Assembly (NCBI GenBank): GCA_051313645.2
Contig: JBNRSN020000028.1
Coordinates: 14,756,001-14,820,000 of the forward strand
DNA length: 64,000 bases
Origin: Centroscyllium fabricii
Taxonomy: Eukaryota
Direction: 5' to 3'
Part shown: piece after piece, positions 1 through 64,000 of the stretch
Numbering within the stretch: position 1 is the first letter of the stretch
Layout: the number at the start of each line of letters is the position of its first letter
The notes under the pieces: generated by a model
The model's database searches: none
What the model saw: the letters and a program-made list of their open reading frames with translations, nothing else
Told to the model about the DNA's origin: nothing
Program-made: the position numbers and the translations under genes

Positions 1-2600
1 AGGAGGAGATTGAGTGTGTTGTCAGTGTGTCTTGTATTAGCAGGAGTCCGTGGTGAGGAGGGGATTGAGTGTGTTGTCAGTGTGTCTTGTATTAGCAGGA
101 GTCCGTGGTGGGGAGGGGATTGAGTGTGTTGTCAGTGTGTCTTGTATCAGCAGGAGTCCGTGGTGAGGAGGGGATTGAGTGTGTTGTCAGTGTGTCTTGT
201 ATTAGCAGGAGTCCGTGGTGAGATGAGGATTGAGTGTGTTGCCAGTGGGTCTTGTATTAGCAGGGTACGTGGTGATGAGGGGATTGAGTGTGTTGTCAGT
301 GTGTCTTGCATCAGCAGGAGTCCGTGGTGAGGAGGGGATTGAGCGTGTTGTCAGTGTGTCTTGTATTAGCAGGAGTCCGTGGTGAGGAGGCGATTGAGCG
401 TGTTGTCAGTGTGTCTTGTATTAGCAGGAGTCCGTGGTGAGGAGGGGATTGAGTGTGTTGTCAGTGTGTCTTGTATCAGCAGGAGTCCGTGGTGAGGAGG
501 GGATTGAGTGTGTTGTCAGTGTGTCTTGTATCAGCAGGAGTCCGTGGTGAGGAGGGGATTGAGTGTGTTGTCAGTGTGTCTTGTATTAGCAGGAGTCCGT
601 GGTGAGATGAGGATTGAGTGTGTTGCCAGTGGGTCTTGTATTAGCAGGGTACGTGGTGAGGAGGGGATTGAGTGTGTTGTCAGTGTGTCTTGTGTCAGCA
701 GGAGTCCGTGGTGAGGAGGGGATTGAGCGTGTTGTCAGTGTGTCTTGTATTAGCAGGAGTCCGTGGTGAGGAGGCGATTGAGCGTGTTGTCAGTGTGTCT
801 TGTATTAGCAGGAGTCCGTGGCGAGGAGGGGATAAAGTGTGTTGTCAGTGTGTCTTGTATTAGCAGGAGTCCGTGGTTATGAGGGGATTGAGTGTGTTGT
901 CAGTGTGTCTTGTATTAGCAGGGGTCCGTGGTGAGGAGGGGATTGAGTGTGTTGCCAGTGGGTCTTGTATTAGCAGGGGTCCGTGGTGAGGAGGGGATTG
1001 AGCGTGTTGTCAGTGTGTCTTGTATTAGCAGGAGTCCGTGGTGAGGAGGGGATTGAGTGTGTTGTCAGTGTGTCTTGTATTAGCAGGGGTCCGTGGTGAG
1101 GAGAGGGTTGAGTGTGTTGTCAGAGTGTCTTGTATTAGCAGGAGTCCGTGGTGAGCAGGGGATTGAGTGTGTTGTCAGTGTGTCTTGTATCAGCAGGGTC
1201 CGTGGTGAGGAGGGGATTGAGTGTGTTGTCAGTGTGTCTTGTATTAGCAGGGTCCGTGGTGAGGAGGCGATTGAGTGTGTTGTCAGTGTGTCTTGTATTA
1301 GTAGGAGTCCGTGGTGAGGAGGTGATTGAGTGTGTTGTCAGTGTGTCTTGTATTAGCAGGGTCCGTGGTGAGATGGGGATTGAGTGTGTTGTCAGTGTGT
1401 CTTCTATTAGCAGGAGTCCATGGTGAGGAGGGGATTGAGTGTGTTGCCAGTGGGTCTTGTATTAGCAGGGTCCGTGGTGAGGAGGTGATTGAGTGTGTTG
1501 CCAGTGGGTCTTGTATCAGCAGGGGTCCGTTGTGAGGAGCGGATTGAGTGTGTTGTAAGTGTGTCTTGTATTAGCAGGAGTCCGTGGTGAGGAGGGGATT
1601 GAGTGTGTTGTCAGTGTGTCTTGTATTAGCAGGGGTCCGTGGTGAGGAGGGGATTGAGGGTGTTGTCAGTGTGTCTTGTATTAGCAGGAGTCCGTGGCGA
1701 GGAGGGGATTAAGTGTGTTGTCAGTGTGTCTTGTATTAGCAGGAGTCCGTGGTTAGGAGGGGATTGAGTGTGTTGTCAGTGTGTCTTGTATTAGCAGTGG
1801 TCCGTGGTGAGGAGGGGATTGAGTGTGTTGTCAGTGTGTCTTGTATCAGCAGGGTCCGTGGTGAGGAGGGGATTGAGTGTGTTGTCAGTGTGTCTTCTAT
1901 TAGCAGGAGTCCGTGGTGAGGAGGAGATTGAGTGTGTTGTCAGTGTGTCTTGTATTAGCAGGGGTCCGGGTTGAGGAGGGGACTGAGTTTGTTGTCAGTG
2001 TGTCTTGTATTAGCAGGAGTCCGTGTTGAGGAGGGGATTGAGTGTGTTGTCAGTGTGTCTTGTATTAGAGGAGTCCGTGGTGAGATGGGGATTGAGTGTG
2101 TTGTCACTGTGTCTTGTATTAGCAGGAGTCCGTGTTAAGGAGGGGATTGAGTGTGTTGCCAGTGGGTCTTGTATTAGCAGGGTCCGTGGTGAGGAGGCGA
2201 TTGAGTGTGTTGGCAGTGTGTCTTGTATCAGCAGGTGTCCGTGGTGAGGAAGGGATTGAGTTTGTTGCCAGTGTGTCTTGTATCAGCAGGAGTCCGTGGT
2301 GAGGAGGGGATTGAATGTGTTGTCAGTGTGTCTTGTATTAGCAGGAGTCCGTGGTGAGATGAGGATTGAGTGTGTTGCCAGTGGGTCTTGTATTAGCAGG
2401 GTACGTGGTGAGGAGGGGATTGAGTGTGTTGTCAGTGTGCCTTGTATCAGCAGGAGTCCGTGGTGAGGAGGGGATTGAGCGTGTTGTCAGTGTGTCTTGT
2501 ATTAGCAGGAGTCCGTGTTGAGGAGGGGATTGAGTTTGTTGCCAGTGTGTCTTGTATCAGCAGGAGTCCGTGGTGAGGAGGGGATTGAGTGTGTTGTCAG
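1..2600. repeat. 54/55-bp tandem satellite, left block (continues beyond window start)
   Basis: Unit aggagtccgtggtgaggaggggattgagtgtgttgtcagtgtgtcttgtattagc repeated head-to-tail, with 54-bp variants (agggtcc). Confidence 0.98.
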
Positions 2601-3051
2601 TCGCCTCGAGGGTACAATTAAAATCTCCCCCGAGGATGATGCACTCGCCGCCGTCGACAGAGCTCAGAAGAGCGGACACTTCTTCAAAGAAGCGCACTTG
2701 CTGCGCACCGATCTGAGGGGCATACACGTTCACAAGATGGAGCGGCACGCCCCCGTGATGAACAGTGACCTGGAGCAAGCGGCCCGGCACGTGCTCCTTG
2801 ACCCTCAATATCTCCGGCTGAAAATGTGGGGACAGCAAGATAGCCACCCCGCTGGACATGTTGGAGAGGTGACTCATGCTGACCCCTCCTTGCCACTCCA
2901 GGAGCCACGTGGCCTCGTCTCCCGGAACGGTGTGGGTTTCTTGCAGGAAGCACACCGCATACTTCCCGTCCCGACGGACCGAGAATTTGTTATATCTACT
3001 GTATGCCTCCCTGCTGCCGTTGATGTTAAGGCTAGCTATGGTTATCTTCAT
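2601..3051 (-). pseudogene. Tx1-like ORF2 N-terminus (AP endonuclease); RT domain missing
   Basis: SLNING, CFLQETH, GVAILLS, VNVYAP and GGDFN motifs, after which the frame runs into satellite. Confidence 0.9.
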
Positions 3052-3076
3052 ATCAGCAGTCTAATACTAATTTTTC

Positions 3077-5210
3077 CTATCGGGGAGAAGGAGCGCAATC
3101 CTTGGATATACGCTCCTTCTTCCGCAGCCCATTGAGGAACTTCTTGAGCCGGCGCAGCTCGAGGTCATTATCGCCCCTGTCCGTGGCCAAGGTTTTAATG
3201 GCGACGCGGACAGATAAAATGAGCGGCGCCAGCTCCGACCACCTTTCGATGGCCTGACGGACCAGTTTTTGGTGACCCAGGCGCACGGCCACAAATTTCC
3301 GGAGCGCCGCCACGGGGATGAGGGGAGACTCGGCGGGGGGCTCGGGGCCGTCCACCACCTCATCGGTGATGAACTCCAGATCATCGTCCGCGCCCGGCTC
3401 CGAGTCCTCGTCCTCCTCCGGAAGGCCACCACCGGCGTCCGATCCATCAGCCGCGCATAACGCGACTAACGGCTCGGCCGCACCGTCTGACCCTACCTCT
3501 GTCTCGATCCCACCCCCAGGATCGGTAGCAGAGGAGTCCTCCCTGGGCTCCACCAGGGGTGCCGGGCCAGAGGGGGGCAGCAGTTCGGGGCTCCCCTCCT
3601 CCTCAAGCGCCGGAGAGCACGGAGAGACGGGGATGTATTCATATATTATCTTCTCCTGTGCGTCCGACGCCGATGTTGAGGGAGGGGTGAAGGAGCCGTC
3701 ACCTTCCCCGCCACCAACCACTGACCCAGCTTGTAGGGTATCCTGGCTTAGACTCTCGACCATATCGAGCAGCTCCTGGACAATACCGTTTTTGTTTTGG
3801 GCGAGGTCTATCCCTTCGACCTAGTCCACCCCTGTCTCCAGGACGCCCGACCCGTCGAGGTAAATTTGTTCCCCTTGAGGGTTTTGGTATTGCAGAGGTT
3901 GTTCCGCGTCCCCCCCCCTCGGGCAGGGCCATATCCCCATCCCCGGGAGACACAGGCGGGGCAATCTCATCCGCCCCACTCTCCCGCAAGACAGGCGACC
4001 CCCGCCCGTCTTTTACAACTATAGTGATTTTGGGAGGGGGCGCGGAGCACGACGATTCCGCTCCCTCGGGGGGACCGTCCTCATGATCACGGCCCCCCTG
4101 CTGACCCTGGGAGTCGAAGTCCTGCTTCCTTTTTATCCCGAAGGGCCACTGAGCGGGGGTGACCTCCATTTCTTCTAAGGCCACCCCCTCCTCTGTTCCC
4201 CCCGGCTGAATAGTTGTTTCGGGCCCCTTTTATCCGAGCCCTGCCGCAGTTGTTAGGTTTTCTGCCATGGCAGTGGCGGCCGCAGGCTCAGACTCGGGGC
4301 CCTCCTTGCTCCCATATTGATCCACCAGACCCTTGATGTAATCGGGAGTCATGGCTGGCAGGTCCTGCTGTTGGGCATCCCCTTCTAGGGGACCCTCCCT
4401 CCTTTGTTTTCTTTTGTTCCGCGCCTTCTTTCTGGCCGGACATGTTTCCTCCCCCCCGCCGGAGGCCGTGATGACATTGGCCTCCGACGACTCCCGCGCA
4501 CCCGACTTCCAAGACACGCGGCCTGACTCTGGGGGATGAGCGGCGCCGGTGCCATTTTTGGCCGCACTATTATTGGCGGCCTTGGAGGCGGGGCAGTTCC
4601 TCCTGATATGCCACACCTCCTTACATGCATGGCACCGCACGTTGTCCGTCGTCCAGAAGACGCAGTAGGCGGTCCCCTGGTACAGCACGGGGAACGCGCC
4701 ATCAGTGTCCTCCTCCCGCGCCAGCTGCATAAATAGCTGACGCCGGAAGGAGAAGACGTGGCGAAGGCTGGCCTCCCGGAACCCGAGCGGGATGGGCGTT
4801 ATCCCCGATCTCACCTCCCCAAGTTTGCGTAGGTGGGGGAGGAGGAGCTCACCGGGAATATAGGGCAGGATGTTTGAGAGGACCACCCTCTGCCCGGCGG
4901 CCTCAAGAGGGTCCACCGACAGGAAGGTGCCGCCCACGGTGAGCCCTTGTTCGATGGCCAGGGCCGCCGCCCGCTCAGATTTCAGGAAGAACACAGCCTT
5001 CCCATACATTTTAGAGGCCGCGACGATGGCTGAGGGGCCGACCACCCCAGCCATGGCCTTGAAGCATGCCTCTATTGTCATTGATGGGTGAGCGTAGCTC
5101 CGCACCCCCAGTTTCATTGTTAGTAGCCGGAAAGGTGACGGGGCATCAGGGGCAGCCGTGGTCTTGGCAGTGGATGCCACGGTTGCGTATGTTCCCGATG
5201 TCCCCGCCAC
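3077..5210 (-). pseudogene. Tx1-like ORF1 (zinc-knuckle nucleic-acid-binding protein), broken into three frames
   Basis: ORFs 4230-5210, 3699-4184 and 3077-3763 are collinear; CX2CX4HX4C motif; long low-complexity acidic/proline-rich linker. Confidence 0.8.
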
Positions 5211-6569
5211 CAGCGAAGATGTTGTCGCTATGCTACCAGGTGGGGAGGGGGTTTGGAGCCATGCTCACCCCAAGTCACAGGCCTTAGAGTTTAAAATGGC
5301 CTCAGATTGTTTTATTTGATTTTCCTCTTGAGCAGAGGGGGGGGGGTGATTAGATAAAGACACACCCCTCCCCTTGATGACAGAAGGGGGCTTAGGGGCC
5401 TTCTCCCCTCTACTCAATTGGCAATAGAAAAAATGAAAGGAAAGTAAATAATTGAGGCGCCTCTAGGGAAAGAGGCAGAGAGAGAGAGAGAGAGAGAGAG
5501 AGGGGTGGTGGGAAGGAGGGAGACCACAAGGGTTGGGTCCCCACTCAGGATGGATGGGTGGGTGGGTGTTGACTAAAGCAGGGTGCACTCTGCGATGGAA
5601 AAAGAAACCCCGGATGATGGTCTTCTGGTGGGGGGAGAAGATGTCTTCACCTGGGATAGCTGGAGATGCCCAGGCTCAGTCCACACCAGGTCTTTAAATA
5701 TGTTCGATTAATCAAAGACTTCACCTAGGCAGCTCCAGCTGTCCCAGGCCAGGCAATAGAAGGGGTGTTTTTAGTGGTGTGCGTGGCCTAGTTTGAATAG
5801 AAACCACACACAGACACACACACCCCTTGATGGTCCGGCCTTCTGGTCTTCTTTTCACCCCCTCCCACAAATAAACACAGTCTTTGAGAGAGTGCACCTA
5901 ATGAAACAACACCCACCTTCAGATGGTTATTCTCCCTCCTTCCGAGCAGTTGGTGATGATGATATCTTCCTCACCCCTCTCTCCCTCTCCCGAAATGGAG
6001 GCCAATCTGGAAGGCAATGATGGGTAGGCCTCAATGTTGTTGTTTTTGCCGGATTCTTGGCCTCCCTTTCCTCTCCTCCGTTTTCTCTCCCGAGGCACCT
6101 CTGCTTTACAAAGTATTCGAAGGGATGAATCCCAGCACTGAGTTCAGCAGTAAATTTAACTCTTCTGTAACTGAGCTTCAGGTGGCAGAACGCAATGTCC
6201 AGAATGTAGGCAACCGTAGTTCTCCGAAGTCCGCTCCACAGCTAAGACTCACTCTACCCGAGTTTCCAGAAGAGAATACATCATCTACAAGGCAGGGGAA
6301 CGCCCAAACCCATTGCCTCTCCAGGAGCTCAGACAGCAACCACTCCTTCGTAGTAATGAGCAGTAAGTAGAATGATCCGGCCACTGCCTGGTCTCAGCAC
6401 CCAGCTTATAAGCCGACTAGATAGATTAGTGCTAACCAATAAGAATGCAGGTATAGAGAACGAGGAACCCACAGGTATGTGCACAGGTAATTGAGGTATA
6501 ATGAACCAAAACAGAGAACAAAACATAGAATTCCAAAACGGATTCCTTAAAGGGGAATGCCATCTGTGA

Positions 6570-21500: not shown

Positions 21501-22876
21501 AGGAGGGGATTGAGCGTGTTGTCAGTGTGTCTTGTATTAGCAGGGTCCGTGGTGAGGAGGGGATTGAGTGTGTTGTCAGTGTGTCTTGTATTAGCAGGAG
21601 TCCGTGGTGAGCAGGGGATTGAGTGTGTTGTCAGTGTGTCTTGTATCAGCAGGGTCCGTGGTGAGGAGGGTATTGAGTGTGTTGTCAGTGTGTCTTGTAT
21701 TAGCAGGGTCCGTGGTGAGGAGGGGATTGAGTGTGTTGCTAGTGGGTCTTGTATTAGCAGGTGTCCGTGGTGAGGAGGGGATTGAGTGTTTTGTCAGTGT
21801 GTCTTGTATTAGCAGGAGTCCGTGGTGAGGAGGGGATTGAGTGTGTTGTCAGTGTGTCTTGTATTAGCAGGAGTCCGTGGTGAGGAGGGGATTGAGTGTG
21901 TTGTCAGTGTGTCTTGTATTAGCAGGGTCCGTGGTGAGGAGGAGATTGAGTGTGTTGTCAGTGTGTCTTGTATTAGCAGGAGTCCGTGGTGAGATGGGGA
22001 TTGAGGGTGTTGTCAGTGTGTCTTGTATTAGCAGGAGTCCGTGGTGAGGAGGGGATTGAGTGTGTTGCCAGTGGGTCTTGTATTAGCAGTGTCGGTGGTG
22101 AGGAAGGGATTGAGTGTGTTGCCAGTGTGTCTTGTATTAGCAGGAGTCCGTGGTGAGGAGGGGATTGAGGGTGTTGTCAGTGTGTCTTGTATTAGCAGGA
22201 GTCCGTGTTGAGTAGGGGATTGAGTGTGTTGCCAGTGGGTCTTGTATTAGCAGTGTCGGTGGTGAGGAAGGGATTGAGTGTGTTGCCAGTGTGTCTTGTA
22301 TTAGCAGGAGTCCGTGGTGAGGAGGAGATTGAGTGTGTTGTCAGTGTGTCTTGTATCAGCAGGAGTCCATGTTGTGGAAGGGATTGAGTGTGTTGCCAGT
22401 GTGTCTTGTATTAGCAGGAGTCCGTGGTGAGGAGGGGATTCAGCGTGTTGTCAGTGTGTCTTGTATTAGCAGGAGTCCGTGTTGAGGAGGGGATTGAGTG
22501 TGTTGTCAGTGTGTCTTGTATTAGCAGGGTCCGTGTTGAGGAGGGGATTGAGTGTGTTGTCAGTGTGTCTTGTATTAGCAGGAGTCCGTGGTGAGGAGGG
22601 GATTGAATGTGTTGTCAGTGTGTCTTGTATTAGCAGGGTCCGTGGTGAGGAGTGGATTGAGTGTGTTGTCAGTGTGTCTTGTATCAGCAGGAGTCCGTGT
22701 TGAGGAGGGGATTGAGTGTGTTGCCAGTGTGTCTTGTATTAGCAGGAGTCCGTGGTGAGGAGGGGATTGAGTGTGTTGTCACTGTGTCTTGTATTAGCAG
22801 GAGACCGTGGTGAGGAGGGCATTGAGTGTGTTGTCAGTGTGTCTTGTATTAGCAGTGTCCGTGGTGAGGAGGGGAT
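6570..22876. repeat. 54/55-bp tandem satellite, main block (~295 units) with higher-order structure
   Basis: Same unit as 1-2600; variant patterns recur at a 5789-bp offset (8985/14774, 10622/16411, 14190/19979) and a 928-bp offset (10957/11885). Confidence 0.98.
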
Positions 22877-23178: not shown

Positions 23179-23747
23179 TCGTCTATCTCAGTCATCGAGA
23201 TCCGGGCTTCTAACTTCACCATCTTGAGTCTCCCTTCAGAAAAAAAACATTGAGAATTGCTGTATTGCCATTTAATGTCACCCGACAAAGGACTACAGGG
23301 TTAAAGAAAGGGTTAATGGTGTCGTCACTTTAAATGGACGCACTTAGAGGAATCCCCGAGGTATTGGGTTACCCAGTTACCGGGATTTCACTGGGATACA
23401 TTAACTATCGTGTTATCATATTATTAATTGCTCACTTAGGAAGCTACAAACAGACGTCAAGGCAATTATGGATCGCCAATCAACGCTGGCCTTGCCAGCG
23501 ACGCCAACATCTCGAGAATGAATTTTTTTAAAACTTTATATTGCATTTTATGGCGTTTTCAGTTTAATTATTTTGTGTCGCTTCAAATAAAATAAATGAA
23601 AATGGAAAACTACAATATTTAGCTCAGTGATGGTTTAGTTTCTCCCTGGAGTAAACATACTGTTCACAGTAACATAAATAATAACAAAATACAATTATTT
23701 CAGAGAGTGAATAATTAGTTTGACAAATACGCATTTACCCGAAGCCC

Positions 23748-25488: not shown

Positions 25489-25901
25489 ATTAAACTCGGT
25501 CATTTTTTCTGAAGCTGTGTAATCCCTTCATTTCCCTTCATCTCTATTTATTCCCAGTCACTTGCTCAGTGAACCGGAGCAGTTTGGCCACAGACCTCTC
25601 GAGACCCAACCACTGCCCTTTCCACTCCATCAGCTCCGAGTACAGTTGCGTGGCGCCGCACACTCTGGGCCTTTACACAGACTAAAATTCGCTCAGTTTT
25701 GTGTCTGCGGCAGCCCAGCCCACAGTTTCCGTTTGCTGCTCTCGTTCTGACCCGCCTAGCCTGCCCTGTGTTATTGGACAGATTGTTGTCGCTGTCCCCT
25801 GTTCGGCCTTGGTTGGGTCAGCATGGCAGTGGGCGGGCATCTGGAGTTCTGCTCCGACAGAGGGTTTCCCGGACTGCAGAGTTTCAGACTTAGGGAGCAT
25901 C

Positions 25902-27865
25902 ATGTGGAACCATCTCGCACCGCTCCTCGTCATTAGTGGCCCTAGAAATAGTAGATGTATTACTGATTATCTTCCAGCAATCGATGGAATCTGGAAATGT
26001 ACCCATGGATTGGAGGGTGGCTAATGTTACCCCACTATTCAAGAAGGGTGGTAGGGAGAAAGCGGGAATTTACAGACCAGTAAGCCTGACATCGGTAGTG
26101 GGGAAGATGCTGGAGTCCATAATAAAGGATGTAATCACTGAGCACTTGAAAATCAGCGGCAGGATCGGACAAAGTCAACATGGATTTACAAAAGGTAAAT
26201 CATGCTTGACTAATCTACTGGATTTTTTTGAGGATGTAACTGGGAAAATTGATCAGGGAGAACCAGTAAATGTGGTGTACTTGGACTTTCAGAAGGTGTT
26301 CGACAAGGTCCCGCACAAGAGATTGGCATATACATTTAGGGCACATGGGATTGGGGGCAAACTATTGACTTGGATTGAGAAGTGGTTGGCAGACAGAAAG
26401 CAGAGAGTGGGAGTGAATGGGTCTTTTTCCGGGTGGCAGTCAGTGACTAGTGGGGTACCGCAGGGATCGGTCCTGGGACCCCAGCTATTCACAATATACA
26501 TTAATGATTTAGAAAAGGGAACTAAATGTAATGTCTCCAAGTTTGCAGATGACACAAAGCTGGGAGGCTGTGTGTGCTGCGAGAAGGATACCAGGATGCT
26601 CCAGGATGAATTGAACAGGTTGGGCGAGTGGACCGAGACATAGCAGATGCAATATAATGTGGATAAATGCGAGGTTATCCACTTTGCGGGCAAAAACAGA
26701 AATGCCGACTATTATGTGAATGGCAATAGATTGGGAGAAGGGGAACTGCAACGAGACCTGGATGTCCTGGTGCACCAGTCACTGAAGGTAAACATGCAGG
26801 TGCAGCAGGCGGTTAAGAAGGCAAATGGTATGTTGGCCTTCATAGCGAAAGGGTTCGAGTACAGGAACAGGGAGGTCTTGCTGCAGTTGTACAGGCCTTG
26901 GTGAGACCGCACCTTGAGTATTGTGTGCAGTTTTGGTCTCCTTATCTAAGGAAGGACGTTCTTGCCATGGAGGGAGTGCAGAGGAGATTCACCAGGCTGA
27001 TATCTGGGATGGCAGGATTGACGTATGAGGAGAGACTGGGTAGACTGGGTTTGTACTCTCTGGAGTTTAGAAGATTAAGAGGGGATCTCATGGAAACGTA
27101 TAAAATTCTAATTGGTCTGGACAAACTTGATGCAGGAAGAATGTTCCCGATGATCGGAGAGTCCAGAACCAGGGGTCATAGTCTAAGAATAAGGGGTAAC
27201 TCATTTAGGACAGAGATGAGGAGGAATTTCTTCACCCAGAGAGTGGTGAACCTGTGGAATTCTCTGCCACAGAAGGCGGTGGAGGCCAAATCATTAAAGA
27301 TATTCAAGAAGGAGCTGGATGTATTTCTTAAGGCTAGAGGGATCGCGGGATATGGGGAGAAGGCAGGGACAGGGTACTTAGTTTGGATGATCAGCCATGA
27401 TCTCATTGAATGGCGGAGCAGGCTCGAGGGGCTGAATGGCCTACTCCTGCTCCTATCTTCTATGTTTCTATGTTTCTATCAGCAATTAAGACATTACACA
27501 GCCTGAGTGCAGTTGAGTGGCGCCGCACACTCTGGACTTTACACAGAGACTTGAGTTTTCCTTCTCACTAAAAATCCATTCTCCCGGTGACTGCTGCAAC
27601 CCAGATGTTATTATTAGTCAAGTGATGATGGTGATGAGAATCACTATGGCTGTTACTTTATGTTAGAATGGAGCCAGACAGACACAGTGGAACAGCCGGT
27701 TCCTGAACTGACGGTTCGAGAGGAAAGGATGTCACATTAACCTGCACCTTGAAAACAAGCGGTGCTGCACATTATGTGCGCTAGTTCAGTCAGCAGTCCG
27801 GATAACCACCAAGGTCGGCAGGAAATGAGTCTTACGGGGTCACATTTCAGGAGAGACCGCGTTGT
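25902..27865 (+). pseudogene. TCR V pseudogene (possibly delta-like) with its leader split by CR1
   Basis: Leader-like MWNHLAPLLVI at 25902; exon from ~27667 WSQTDTVEQPVPELTVRE..DVTLTCTLKTSGAAHYVR*FSQQSG*PP..ESYGVTFQER; no 3' end or RSS found. Confidence 0.65.
25936..27479 (+). mobile_element. CR1-type LINE, 5'-truncated, RT domain with a stop and a frameshift
   Basis: YRPVSLTS, QHGF, YLDFQKVFDKV, GVPQGSVLGP and KFADD motifs; same 3' tail as 24650-25488. Confidence 0.96.
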
Positions 27866-29489: not shown

Positions 29490-29750
29490 TAGACGTCCAA
29501 AGATGTGCGGGTTAGGTTGATTGGCCATGAAAAATTGACCCTTAGTGTTAGGGGGATTGAATATGTGGGGTTACGGGGATAGGGTGGGATATGTGTCGGT
29601 GCAGGCTCCATAGGGATCGAGGGATATGGGGAGAGAGCAGAGACAGGGTACTGGGTTTGGATGATCAGCCATGATCTCATTGAATGGCGGAGCAGGCTCG
29701 AAGTGCCGAATGGCCTACTCCTGGTCCTATCTTCTATGTTTCTATGTTTA
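29490..29750 (+). mobile_element. Chimeric SINE: HE1-like body plus CR1 3' tail
   Basis: gtccaaagatgtgcgggttaggttgattggcc body joined to gggatatggggagag...ttctatgtttctatg. Confidence 0.75.
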
Positions 29751-29834
29751 TAGACCTATGTGTAAAGGGTCAGTGTGTGTTCCGTGGATTATATTTAGTC
29801 CGAAATGTCTGATACATTCTCTGTTTTGTTACAG

Positions 29835-30176
29835 GAATGAATGGCGAAGATTCAGTGCTCCAGGATCCGTCTGAATTAAAGGTTCAGGAAATGACAGACC
29901 ATAATACTGAACTGCAGTCACTCGAGAGCTGCTTCAACTCTCTTGTGGTACATCCAGTATCCCGGTGAAGCTCCTAGATATTTACTGAAGAGATATCGCT
30001 CAGAGGACGGAGACAAGTCTCCAAATTTACCAGATAGGTTCTCTGCTGATATGAACGAAATAAATTAAACAGTTCCTTTAGATATCGCCGGGGCACTTGT
30101 CTCCGACCCCGCGGTTTATTTCTGTGCCATGAGCCCCACTCTGCTGCAGCGATACAGCGGATGCCGGCCAAAAACC
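29835..30176 (+). pseudogene. TRAV-like pseudogene with RSS
   Basis: GMNGEDSVLQDPSELKVQE /frameshift/ TIILNCSHS..LLWYIQYPGEAPRYLL..DRFSA..*TVPLDIAGALVSDPAVYFCAMSP; RSS CACTCTG + 24 + CCAAAAACC. Confidence 0.9.
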
Positions 30177-30200
30177 CACACTGAGAGTTCCAGCTAGTGC

Positions 30201-30216
30201 TCACCAGAGGGCGCTG
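30201..30216 (+). promoter_or_regulatory. CTCF motif ~25 bp beyond the RSS nonamer
   Basis: TCACCAGAGGGCGCTG. Confidence 0.7.
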
Positions 30217-30336
30217 TCACATCGATAACCAGAGCGAAAATTCAGCCTCCACAGTGAGGCAGAGGGAGATTCCTAAAAGGGCAACAACAGAGAACACTCA
30301 ACAAGAACATCTGAGGTCCACTTGCAGAATTATATA

Positions 30337-30548
30337 GAAACATAGAAACATAGAAGATAGGAGCAGGAGTAGTCCATTCGGCCCTTCGAGCCTGCTCCGC
30401 CATTCAATGAGATCATGGCTGATCATCGAAACCCAGTACCCTGTCCCTGCTCTCTCCCCATATCCCTCGATCCCTATCGAGCCTGCACCGACACATATCC
30501 CACCCTATCCCCGTAACCCCACATATTCAATCCCCCGAACACAAAGGG
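30337..30548 (-). mobile_element. Chimeric SINE (HE1-like body plus CR1 tail), inverted relative to 29490-29750
   Basis: Near-identical reverse complement of 29550-29750, including the body/tail junction. Confidence 0.75.
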
Positions 30549-30715
30549 TTTACGTTGTCTGCATGTGTGTATATATGTATTGATGTGTGTGTGTATATAT
30601 GTATTGATGTGTGTTGTGTGTGTCTCAGTGTGCAGGCGCGCGCATCAGGGCTGATATTGACGTGGGCGGTTTCCATTGAACTGGAGGCACCTTCTGCGGC
30701 AGTTTTATTTCGCCG

Positions 30716-33390: not shown

Positions 33391-33870
33391 CAGCATTAAG
33401 GAGAGATTATGAAGGACAATGATCATTGGGGGGACTCTGTGCTTGGGGCCTGTTTCAAAGAGCACAATCACTACCTTGTGAAAGCTGTTCCTTGTGAATA
33501 AACTGTCTCTGACCCGGCAACATACTCTGATCAAAGAAACCCAGGTGTACAGGCAGCGATCAAAGAGTCGGGGTCACTGACAGGGGGGATGTGTGATTGG
33601 CTGCACAGGATCGCAGGGAGGCACGGGAAGGGCGTCAAAGGTCAAAAGACGAGTTCAGGTGCCACAACTCTATTTATGATGTTCATTGTTATTGTAATAC
33701 GCGGTGCAATCACCAACTAATATAATTCCCGAAGTAGACCTCACCTGCTCTTGATGGGTGTAGTTTTTGATTGATAAGGTCCCCATCACTCTCACCGTGG
33801 AGGCTGAATCATTGCTTGTAGTTATCGGTGTGATTATGGAAGACCGGAAAATATTGGCAGCATTTTGGAG

Positions 33871-57842: not shown

Positions 57843-58060
57843 TCACGGAGCCTAGTTCTTGTACAGCTGGTACTAATACCGATCGGGCTTACTGAGTCTT
57901 GTTGTGCAGTTGCAGTCTATTTTCACACCATCTCCTTCAGTGACGCTGAATCTGCCCGAATCTCCCCTGAATTAAAGATAACTGAGAGTTGAATACAACA
58001 CTGAGACACAAGGCATGGTCATACCTACCGAACAAAGCCACAATATAATGAGGTGACGGT
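57843..58060 (-). pseudogene. Partial tandem duplicate of the adjacent V (part of leader, intron, 5' half of exon)
   Basis: Highly similar to 58316-58530. Confidence 0.85.
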
Positions 58061-60592: not shown

Positions 60593-60773
60593 TTTTTAAA
60601 GTAGAAAAGGGGATTTAAGGCTCCACAGACATGATTAGCAAAGTTATGTTTTTTATCATAACTGCGAGTTGAATTCGCAAACTAATATAATTCCGCAAGT
60701 GTACCTCACCTGTTCTTGTTAGGTGTTGTGTTTTGTTGCTGTCACTGTGAAGGCTGAATTGTTTAGCGGGGTG

Positions 60774-60854
60774 AGAGCGCCCTCTGGTGACCACTTACTC
60801 GAACTCACAGTGTGGGTTTTTGTCCGGGATCCGCGAAAACTCTGCAGCAGAGTG
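60774..60854 (-). other. Orphan RSS plus CTCF motif (paralogue of 30137-30216); V exon absent
   Basis: Reverse complement CACTCTG + 24 + ACAAAAACC ... TCACCAGAGGGCGCT. Confidence 0.85.
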
Positions 60855-60956
60855 AAACACAGAAGACAGGAGCAGGAGTAGGCCATTCGGCCCGTCGAGC
60901 CTGCTCCGCCATTCAATGAGATAATAGCTAATTATCCAAACCCAGCACCCCCTCCG

Positions 60957-61163
60957 GTGGAGGTGCCGGTGTTGGACTGGGGTGGACAATTGTAAGAAGT
61001 CACACAACACCAGGTTATAGTCCAACAGTTTTATTAGAAATCACAAGCTTTCGGAGCGCTGCTCATTCTTCAGGTGAAGTCGACTGATGAAGGAGCTGCG
61101 CTCCGAAAGCTTGTGATTTCTAATAACGCTGTGGGACTATAGCCTGGTGTGTGACTTCTTACA
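60957..61163. mobile_element. Penelope-like palindromic relic
   Basis: Imperfect inverted repeat 60991-61163 with a hammerhead core in each arm. Confidence 0.7.
61041..61116. ncRNA. Two divergent minimal type I hammerhead ribozyme motifs (61041-61077 minus, 61084-61116 plus)
   Basis: CTGATGA-aggagc-tgc-gctcc-GAAA-GCTT on +; tcac-CTGAAGA-atgagc-agc-gctcc-GAAA-GCTT-gtga on -. Confidence 0.65.
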
Positions 61164-61574
61164 TCTCTCTATCGTGTTCGTGAAGGTGCCGCGTGTAGAA
61201 AACCAACTTGTCTCAATCTCTCGTTTCAACACAACAAAATGCCCAATTAATAGTAGCAGTTATAATAGATAATATATGATAACTGTAGCTCAGAGACATA
61301 TTTGAAATGGCAGCAGTTACTTTAAGCATCAGGCGGGAAACATGGGACAAATCTACGCCCTCTGTATGTAGCGGGGTACCTCAGATTTGGATTCTGTCTG
61401 GTTTCATATTGTTTTGAACGAGCTTCATTCAACAAATGTGTCTTGGATGTTAAGAATAAACAAAGAGAATCTCCGGGATTTACACTGAAGTTGTCATTGG
61501 CGCCGTGTATATGTTTATCTGCATTAATTTCTCTAATAATAATAATAGTAATAACAAGAAAAATGTGACATAAA

Positions 61575-61890
61575 CATGAATCATAGAATCTCTACAGTGC
61601 AGATAGAGGCCATCTCGGCCCATCGAGCCTGCACCGACACGTATCCCACCCTATCCCCGCAACCCCACATATTTAATCCCCCTAACACTGAGGGTCAATT
61701 TATCCTGGCCAATCAACCTAACCCGCACATCTTTGGACTGTGGGAGGAAACCGGAGCACCCGGAGGAAACTCACGCAGACACGGGGAGAATATGCAAACT
61801 CCAGACAGATAGTACCCGAGGCCGGATTTGAACCCGGGTCTCTAGCGGTGTGAGACAACAGTGCTAACCACTATGCCACCGTGCCACCCG
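61575..61890 (-). mobile_element. Full-length HE1-type V-SINE
   Basis: tRNA-derived head (tggcatagtggttagc..gggttcaaatcc), V-domain, and tail ..gagattctatgattc. Confidence 0.88.
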
Positions 61891-62704
61891 TGCAACAACA
61901 TCCATCAGTAATTTGAGAAATAAACAATTTCTCAGGCAGAGGGCCGATTATCTCACATCGACACCAGACGGAGCTCTCTCGTCGTGTTTGCCTGTTAACT
62001 GCAGCAGATTAGTCGCAAGATGACACGGCCCTTGAGGATGGGGAACGCCGTTGAACCCATTTCAATTTATTCTTCCAGAAAACTCCACCCCCATAATTAC
62101 CTTTATTTGCTACTAAACTCATCCCTTGATGTTGGATTCTGACGCTTTGCCTGGAGTCCATTCCAAGTGTCGATCGCTCTCTGTGTGACCAACATTCTCT
62201 TCCTCTCAGTCCGAAAGTTACAATTTACCAGTTTGAACCTGTGCACACTTGTCCTACTGCCCCTGTTTAATTTCAGTCATTTACCGCATTAACCCTTTTC
62301 CATGTCACGTTCTATCTTATATATTTATGTAATTAGTGTTTTACCTTGGGAGTCATAGACATTGCTACTCTCGCGGTTTCTTTCTGTTCCTCTTGTTATC
62401 TCTACACCTGATTCTCTCACTTTCTAAATCTGTTACTCTCACTGCCACTCTCTGTTGCTCGCTCTATCTCTGAATAAGTTTCTCTCACTTTGTCTCTACT
62501 TCTGTTCCTCTCGCTGCCTCTACATCTGTTTCTCTCTCTCTCTTTCCATCTCTTCCTGATTCTTTCACTGGGCTTTAATTTGGTTCTCTGTTTCTCAGTC
62601 TGTAAGTCTCCCTGTTGCTGCATCTGTTTCTCTCTCGCTGCCGTTCCCTCTGTTTCTCTCCCACTTCTTATCTGCCCCTCGGTTGTTCCCCTGTAAATTA
62701 GTTT

Positions 62705-62960
62705 ATTTCCCTCCCTGTCTCTCTCTCATTTGTCTCACTGTCTCTCCATTTCCCACTCTCCATCTCTCCCTTAATTTATCTCCTTGTATCTCCATCTGTT
62801 GCTATCCCTGTCTCTCCTTCATTTTCCCTCCCTGTCTCTCTCTCATTTGTCTCATTGTCTCTCCATTTCCCTCTCTCCCTCTCTCCCTTAATTTATCTCC
62901 TTGTATCTCTATCTGTTTATTTCCCCGTCTCTCCTTCATTTTCTCTCCCTGTCTCTCCCT
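62705..62960. repeat. 117-bp CT-rich tandem duplication (~2.2 copies)
   Basis: 39-codon period visible in ORF 62683-63021. Confidence 0.8.
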
Positions 62961-63364
62961 CAATGACAGATTTGAAAAACAAGTATTTACTCGAACAGGG
63001 GGTGCTTTGATGCGTCGTTAGTTTTCGTTGCAGTGAAAATATACAAGTGTTTCTTTTGGATTCCATTCCCGGGAGACTACACTCGATTAGGTGACAGTTC
63101 GAAGGCGAGAGAATCAATACTGTGCAGCCAGTGGACAGAGCACAAGTCAAGTGTACCCTGGCCCTGGGTCAATCACAAGCCTCAAACAATCCCCCGTAAA
63201 TGACAAGATCTTCCCACCCATAACCAAATGCGGCCTTTACTCGTTTTATGGGCTCTATTTGAATGCATGAGAAATATTAACATTAAACCAAATGATCTGC
63301 TGTGTCCCCATCGAAAGAAATTGATATCCATCCTCTCTGTCCGCACTGGATTTCACAACAAGTC

Positions 63365-63712
63365 CCAGCGGGTGAAAGCTCAGTGCAGATCAGGTGACGC
63401 ACCCAATCCCCCATCAGAGGGAGAGGAGACCTTCAACCCCCTCTGCCTGGGGTGGATTGTCCCCCAGATACCAGAGGGTGAAAGGTCAGTGTACAATCCT
63501 CTGACCCACCTAGTCCCCCATCAGAGGGAGAGGAGACCTTCATCCCCCCATGCCTGGGGTGGATTGTACCCCAGATCCCAGTGGGTGAAAGGTCAGTGTA
63601 AAATCCTCTGACCCACCTTGTCCCCCATCAGAGGGAGAGGAGACCTTCATCCCCCTCTGCCTGGGTTGGATTGGACCCCAGCTCCCAGTGGGTGAAAGGT
63701 CAATGTCTGACT
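63365..63712. repeat. 107-bp tandem repeat (~3.2 copies)
   Basis: cccccatcagagggagaggagacc starts at 63408, 63515 and 63622. Confidence 0.88.
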
Positions 63713-63787
63713 CACTGCCCCGGCAGTACTGCATGAGTAAACAGTAACCTTGGCGGCTTTTACTCCAGAGAATAAATGAGAAACCGG

Positions 63788-63803
63788 GCCACCAGAGGGC
63801 GTT
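63788..63803 (+). promoter_or_regulatory. CTCF motif
   Basis: CACCAGAGGGCG core. Confidence 0.6.
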
Positions 63804-64000
63804 TCAGGGTAAATAAAACGTCAGCGCTGGCATTGTTCCCCGGCCCTCAGTGAGGAGAGAATAGATACTGTCCATCAGACCTGATAGAATAGGATAGCAT
63901 TGATTGCACATCAGAATTAAATCGATTTCCCAGTGATATTCTTTATCCACCGAGCGCAGATTCAGGAAAACGCGATGAATGAAATTGTAACTTTCACATG

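Follow-up and report, generated by a model that had tools for sequence, protein, structure and literature searches.

The locus described here raises the question of whether a RAG break made in the germ line can be healed by a retrotransposon. On the minus strand of a 64,000-nt stretch of the Centroscyllium fabricii genome (hereafter the window), the 3′ tail of a CR1-type LINE runs straight into the heptamer of a V-type recombination signal whose V exon is gone, and a preliminary description of the stretch took this for a possible germline RAG break healed by retrotransposition. The geometry of that proposal and the published premises on which it draws both stand, but nothing at the locus tells RAG apart from chance. 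We consider that the locus is best explained by an ordinary CR1 insertion, with the V exon deleted at insertion or later and no need of RAG (probability about 0.55).

Besides two large satellites, the window contains Ig-superfamily V exons that are clustered on both strands and carry 23-type signals (eight matches against 0.5 expected by chance; for 12-type signals the figures are two and 0.5). Eight V exons were found by tblastn, one of them weakly; three have open frames and conserved motifs (33999, 45663 and 55633) and five are broken. They are V-set domains whose best single-domain PDB matches include T-cell receptor (TCR) delta and alpha chains, and no J or C was identified, nor any D or J signal shown, within the 64 kb. 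From these features the cluster appears to be a decaying TCR alpha/delta-type array. Attempts to name the V family by protein search gave no match for a 57-aa piece and one unnamed match for P0002. Within the array, the V pseudogene segment 58316-58532 has been partly duplicated in tandem, the copy at 57844-58060 being 94% alike. One satellite fills most of 1-22860 and extends to a decayed V at 22860; inside it, at 2506-5264, lies a different LINE with an endonuclease domain and a long ORF1, which we take to be L1/Tx1-like.

The junction itself is confirmed as real and exact. On the minus strand the 5′-truncated CR1 tail covers 97 nt from 60950 to 60854, reaching further than the end at 60925 first given for it, and runs into the first C of the signal; the letters at the join are ...CTCCTGTCTTCTGTGTTT, then CACTCTG at 60854-60848. 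Tail and heptamer overlap by one nucleotide, the first C of the heptamer: five other CR1 copies in the window continue as CTATGTTT-C-TA..., and because these copies also continue with C, the shared letter is a single C. The heptamer border is fixed by a paralogous signal at 30137 on the plus strand, since the first C is the very first base at which it resembles the 60854 locus. These two comparisons bear out the claims of a direct fusion with a 1-nt overlap and of a join precisely at the coding/signal border. The heptamer is whole, no coding letter is left, and the position of the junction is the exact position of a RAG cut. The tail ends after one terminal repeat unit plus C, within the normal terminal repeat of the element, and therefore resembles a true retrotransposition end.

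The strands also agree with the proposal. A RAG cut leaves the signal-end 3′-OH on the strand ending GTG at the heptamer, and target-primed reverse transcription (TPRT) starts from the strand complementary to whatever follows the 3′ end of the element. At 60854 the would-be primer strand is the one bearing the signal-end 3′-OH, which is the orientation that priming from a signal end predicts and which had been asserted for this site.

The signal is a V-type 23-RSS by its structure: a CAC heptamer (60848-60854, minus strand), a spacer within 23 ± 1 nt (here 24 nt, 60824-60847) and a consensus nonamer, ACAAAAACC (60815-60823), of the kind that lies 3′ of a V exon, which is still present in the paralogue. 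It departs from consensus at two heptamer positions and in its 24-nt spacer, a length that weakens an RSS as a RAG substrate. CACTCTG nevertheless retains CAC and the T6-G7 step favoured by RAG in high-throughput assays (PMC10536018), so the signal at 60854 may be a possible RAG substrate. The paralogous unit (29837-30335, plus strand) comprises a V pseudogene that still precedes its signal, the same heptamer with a spacer that is also 24 nt long, a CTCF-like motif and a downstream flank, and is 72% alike to the orphan signal over 60685-60854. The orphan signal likewise has a CTCF-like motif (60777-60790, minus strand), 64 nt from the start of the heptamer as in the paralogue, and a conserved V-unit downstream flank (60598-60776, minus strand) with paralogues at 30230-30335 and 33637-33833 and a second heptamer-like word, CACAGTG, at 60749. 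We regard the motif at 60777-60790 as a putative CTCF site; the region is covered by many contigs in four sequencing runs (X1, X5, X17 and X19).

Some further features of these flanks may be recorded. The CACTCTG heptamer and 24-nt spacer have been retained in this V family (30137, 60854) though the copies are only 72% alike. The second heptamer-like word stands 105 nt downstream of the signal together with a weak nonamer, and is kept in three paralogues (60749 minus, 30250 plus, 33799 minus). Putative CTCF-like motifs occur at 30201, 23748, 32499 and 63789 on the plus strand and 60790 on the minus strand, two of them 64 nt from the starts of CACTCTG heptamers; to us they resemble the RSS-associated CTCF sites of mouse VH genes.

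The tail can be traced to a reverse transcriptase-encoding element. It is 89% alike to the tail of a 1.5-kb LINE at 25936-27478, whose ORF is recognised as RVT_1 (E 4e-27), so that tail is continuous with the ORF of a non-LTR retrotransposon. The protein of this LINE is 50-57% alike to bird and turtle reverse transcriptases and 73% alike to a ray protein; among the matches listed its relatives come from bird, turtle, caecilian and ray, and none is named CR1. Together with the repeat families, these likenesses point to a cartilaginous fish. Bird LINEs are CR1. Six CR1 copies in the window end in a tandem repeat of an 8-nt unit, in 1-2.5 copies and with no poly(A). The copy at 60854-60950 differs from the majority of the five others at 9 of 97 letters, where those copies themselves differ at 2-9.

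How this family inserts can be seen at two copies whose empty site is readable from a paralogue, and both are untidy. At the first, a CR1 tail joined to a SINE piece (30336-30549, minus strand) that serves as our control, the 3′ end coincides with a break in paralogous likeness; the overlap is about 3 nt and the flank next to it has been lost, although no RSS lies there. The second, the LINE at 25936-27478, carries 78 nt of filler and has lost about 19 nt of its target. Where insertions of other families can be compared with a paralogous empty site, which is so for three of them, both flanks are retained, as judged by eye. The 3′ flank of the 1.5-kb CR1 (25936-27556) contains a copy of 25622-25681, about 300 nt upstream, which looks like templated filler, a mark of break repair.

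The V exon is indeed missing in full, as had been reported, up to the end of the window at 64000. Searches of 60950-64000 by tblastn with four V proteins of the window and by blastn with nine V-unit segments returned no V exon, leader or intron, and local alignment of 17 segments against shuffled sequence found no likeness to any of these in 61165-61580. What lies upstream of the CR1 tail is a high-copy repeat with inverted arms that are 85% alike (60957-61163, minus strand), presumably Penelope-like. It is distinct from CR1 and was inserted into the 5′ side of the junction region; its end at 60957, where contigs have loose ends, does not reach the end of the family and directly adjoins the 5′ end of the CR1 piece. 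Beyond it is a low-copy flank (61164-61580). Because this repeat re-altered the 5′ side and overwrote the original 5′ junction, the loss of the V exon cannot be tied to the CR1 event. Nor is the missing V exon diagnostic, in view of the signal-free control at 30336, the five of eight V exons that are broken and the truncation of the 5′ side by a second element. The traits of endonuclease-independent insertion are all seen at 60854 (no target duplication, loss of host sequence and a short-overlap join), at a site whose 5′ junction is not original; the control at 30336 also shows host loss without target duplication, and has no signal at all. Further upstream, 63230-63800 (plus strand) contains a leader-like ATG frame, a 107-nt tandem repeat, a nonamer-like word and a CTCF-like motif. 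We do not claim a second V-less signal with leader there, as alignments were no better than with shuffled sequence.

How often would such a junction arise by chance? Masking of satellites and simple repeats left 34,783 bases, which hold the 3′ ends of seven other members of the same CR1 family and of 17 other non-LTR elements in all; the SINE, L2-like and Penelope-like labels of the repeats counted are our own assumption. The chance of a correctly oriented end is then 1.0e-4 (same family, exact position) to 7.3e-4 (any family, ±1) per signal, and 0.1-0.7% for ten signals on the local scale. Across a genome, 0.03-0.73 cases are expected if there are 300-1000 signals, a number that we assume; this figure may be too high because selection acts on many signals, at which an insertion would be lost again. 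One in nine heptamer borders in the window (three placed by eye) has such a junction, and at the other eight the nearest retroelement end is 199-1238 nt away. The junction is striking locally and unsurprising across a scan of many such loci. Elements of the CR1 group are reported to make up 22-34% of elasmobranch genomes (bioRxiv 10.64898/2026.01.13.699120).

Part of the stretch is present in at least 20 sequencing runs, with no RNA run among those listed, and the contigs of four (X1, X5, X17 and X19) were compared. Among the matches listed for these four, no contig spans the 60854 junction. Loose ends with the same tail consensus stop at 60854 in at least 841, 159 and 386 contigs of X1, X5 and X17, respectively, and at least three homologous contigs from two other organisms cease to align there (X5 record 26; X17 records 10 and 11). 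In one organism (A) both flanks are about 99% alike to the window; in another (B) the upstream flank is 98% alike, with 7 of 423 letters different. The signal flank belongs to a multi-copy family in all four runs (at least 7-21 contigs at 60791-60800). Its nearest relative among the matches listed, X5 record 26, differs at 6 of 90 letters and then continues with 75 letters unlike CR1; it is probably a paralogue, because the upstream flank of organism B is so much less different (Fisher p 0.015). Whether the CR1 copy and the flank differ in age depends on how changes are counted: p is 0.04 if the six differences are shared out between two lineages with all nine CR1 changes counted, 0.2-0.3 with clustered changes merged, and 0.6 (Fisher) if all flank changes occurred in the window copy, to which four of five checked positions are private. 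Patterns from the signal flank and from the CR1 tail each had 0 matches in metagenome, viral and prokaryote collections.

On the reading that we prefer, the bottom strand would have been nicked beside the first base pair of the heptamer, by the CR1 endonuclease or by an incidental break. Reverse transcription would then have started from the 3′-OH of the nick, base-paired to a single letter of the terminal repeat, giving the tail-then-CAC order seen at the junction by the established route of TPRT. The cDNA may have been attached by its 5′ end to a point far upstream, or the rest may have been removed when 60951-61163 underwent an insertion and deletion later on; either course would leave the V exon gone, as it is within the window, and the orphan signal would decay afterwards. 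In favour of an ordinary insertion are the high local density of CR1, the eight of nine borders that are clear, the untidiness of both readable copies, the five broken V exons among eight, a tail that ends in its normal terminal repeat as TPRT gives, and the re-alteration of the 5′ side by a second element. Insertion of LINEs with loss of target sequence has been reported (PMC4245944; PMC13526784), and at Cas9 breaks about 2,500 L1 inserts were found among more than 320,000 captured, the others being vector and genomic DNA, with L1 junctions spread over kilobases (PMC9237045). Against it stands the exact and correctly oriented match to the RAG cut, at 0.1-0.7% per ten signals. The overlap is 1 nt here versus about 3 nt at the control; direct or short joins are described for break-primed insertions (PMC9237045). 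A CR1-like element of zebrafish is reported to have truncated its targets only rarely in cultured cells (PMC4245944).

Involvement of RAG in some way retains an appreciable minority chance in our estimate. The form closest to the original proposal, in which a germ cell suffers a RAG cut at the 23(24)-signal, the 3′-OH of the blunt signal end primes CR1 reverse transcription, the coding end is lost and the cDNA is joined upstream, we regard as unlikely. It accounts well for the exact border, the lack of any V letter, the correct strand and the 1-nt overlap. There is published support for its components: RAG-like joining in the shark germ line over the past 7 Myr or so (PMC2193156; PMC2193153), breaks at single signals (PMC6509286) and the use by L1 of programmed breaks without its own endonuclease (PMC9237045). 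That the signal flank (6 of 90 letters, compared with X5 record 26) and the CR1 copy (9 of 97; the Fisher p of 0.6 above) have decayed to a similar degree is in keeping with it but fits an ordinary insertion equally. It is a single case, for which the chance expectation at genome scale is not small, and it needs three rare steps: germline cleavage in a V array, loss of more than 300 nt on the coding side and capture of a cDNA. With its 24-nt spacer and two changes in the heptamer the signal is a weaker substrate, P or N nucleotides and any trace of a hairpin are unreadable because the 5′ junction has been overwritten, and the germline events described in the published work considered here are joins of Ig clusters, not of TCR-type V arrays. 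In the literature searched, with most subscription papers outside its scope, we found no description of a heptamer joined to the tail of a retroelement. We also think it very unlikely that RAG broke the signal in the germ line and that the end was ligated or transposed into a pre-existing CR1 tail, with no reverse transcription at the site. Target-joined signal ends do keep the heptamer intact (PMC2193153). A 12-spacer-like signal at 23665 (plus strand) faces the one at 60854, an arrangement expected of the two ends of a block moved by RAG. RAG transposition leaves a target duplication of 4-5 bp at both signal ends, yet there is none between the 23665 and 60854 ends; two 12-type matches compare with 0.5 by chance, and to hit the last 15 nt of a CR1 would be an extra coincidence. 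A RAG-moved 37-kb block at 23665-60854 was accordingly rejected, its flanks not being direct repeats and the 12-type count lying within chance. The signal-like word at 23665 itself has a CTCF-like motif 83 nt on.

The remaining explanations dispense with RAG in the germ line. An older CR1 may have stood upstream of the V exon until a deletion, made without RAG, brought its tail up against the heptamer; a resemblance of the tail to the Tyr-Phe-Cys codons at the V end may have helped. The paralogue at 30137 does have an intronic CR1 tail in the same orientation, 389 nt upstream of its heptamer, and the junction tail matches the V end of the paralogue at 9 of 11 columns, the G at 60860 being the V letter. 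Yet the CR1 of the paralogue is a separate and younger insertion (4 of 97 letters from the majority, versus flanks 72-78% alike), and an ancestral intronic copy common to both loci was rejected because the copies are too young for the duplication. A join by microhomology would moreover leave about ten V letters before CAC; no such letters are present, the TTTC there agreeing with the CR1 tail, and two coincidences are needed, at the tail end and at the heptamer border. Taken by itself such a deletion is distinctly improbable; with this variant included, an ordinary CR1 insertion becomes fairly probable. That the junction is an assembly error, or a somatic lymphocyte event caught in the assembly, is in our estimate highly unlikely. 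No contig among the matches listed spans the junction and no X1 contig among those compared has the letter of the window at 60791 or 60800, but the missing span holds only among those matches and hence proves nothing, both flanks are about 99% alike in run X1, and the CR1 copy and signal flank each bear old changes of their own.

The proposal nonetheless describes something possible at each step. RAG signal ends are blunt (PMC8355894), germline RAG-like joining of shark Ig genes is published (PMC2193156; PMC8355894), and endonuclease-independent L1 insertion occurs at programmed breaks (PMC9237045), so that both of its premises, germline RAG activity in cartilaginous fish and LINE insertion at existing breaks, have support in print. 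An HE1/HER1 pair is also described in sharks and rays (PMC3747384). The locus resembles several known systems in part. LINE insertions with target loss (L1 retrotransposition-mediated deletion, CR1/L2 target-site truncation) share its intact 3′ terminus, 5′ truncation and absent adjoining host sequence, whereas here the 3′ junction is at the RAG cut position and the overwritten 5′ junction hides the size of the first loss. Endonuclease-independent L1 insertions at Cas9 sites likewise have the 3′ end of the element joined to the nuclease cut directly or by 1-6 nt of overlap (PMC9237045); those were made in somatic cultured human cells by over-expressed L1 and spread over kilobases, unlike a germline CR1 at a blunt RAG-type end of a putative break. 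The germline-joined Ig genes and hybrid joints of cartilaginous fish (PMC2193156; PMC2193153) are fixed genomic changes that also end exactly at an RSS border, but involve paired 12/23 signals within Ig clusters, whereas here an unpaired signal end meets a retroelement within a TCR-type V array. Finally, RAG transposition and single-RSS cut-and-run breaks join a whole heptamer to foreign DNA (PMC2193153; PMC6509286); they are known from lymphocytes and in vitro, whereas at 60854 neither target duplication nor partner end was found.

We think it improbable as a general process that germline RAG in cartilaginous fish cuts TCR-type V signals and that CR1 reverse transcriptase primes on the signal end, deleting V genes and leaving tail-capped orphan signals. 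If it were true, such signals could be counted as fossils of RAG breaks that took place in the germ line beyond the Ig clusters. That RAG acts in the shark germ line is concluded from joined Ig genes, perhaps kept by selection; retroelement tails on heptamers would be a neutral marker of such breaks, would extend them to TCR arrays and would link two genome-editing systems in the turnover of V genes. The single case alone is a CR1 insertion in a V graveyard, and its value is as a pointer to a simple genome survey.

The CR1 copies of the window have some other peculiarities. An inverted pair of SINE and CR1-tail chimeras, 96% alike (29538-29752, plus strand; 30335-30549, minus strand), flanks the V pseudogene at 29837-30136 and suggests an inversion with duplication. 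In the junction copy, four of the nine differences create a near-perfect palindrome at 60918-60934, as template switching would. Four of its 18 A residues are changed, one of these changes being common to other copies (p 0.002-0.02, post hoc). Three A-to-G changes on the sense strand lie in a T-A context (60860, 60867 and 60946), one of them opposite a C in the tail hairpin; our guess is that they might reflect ADAR-like editing before reverse transcription.
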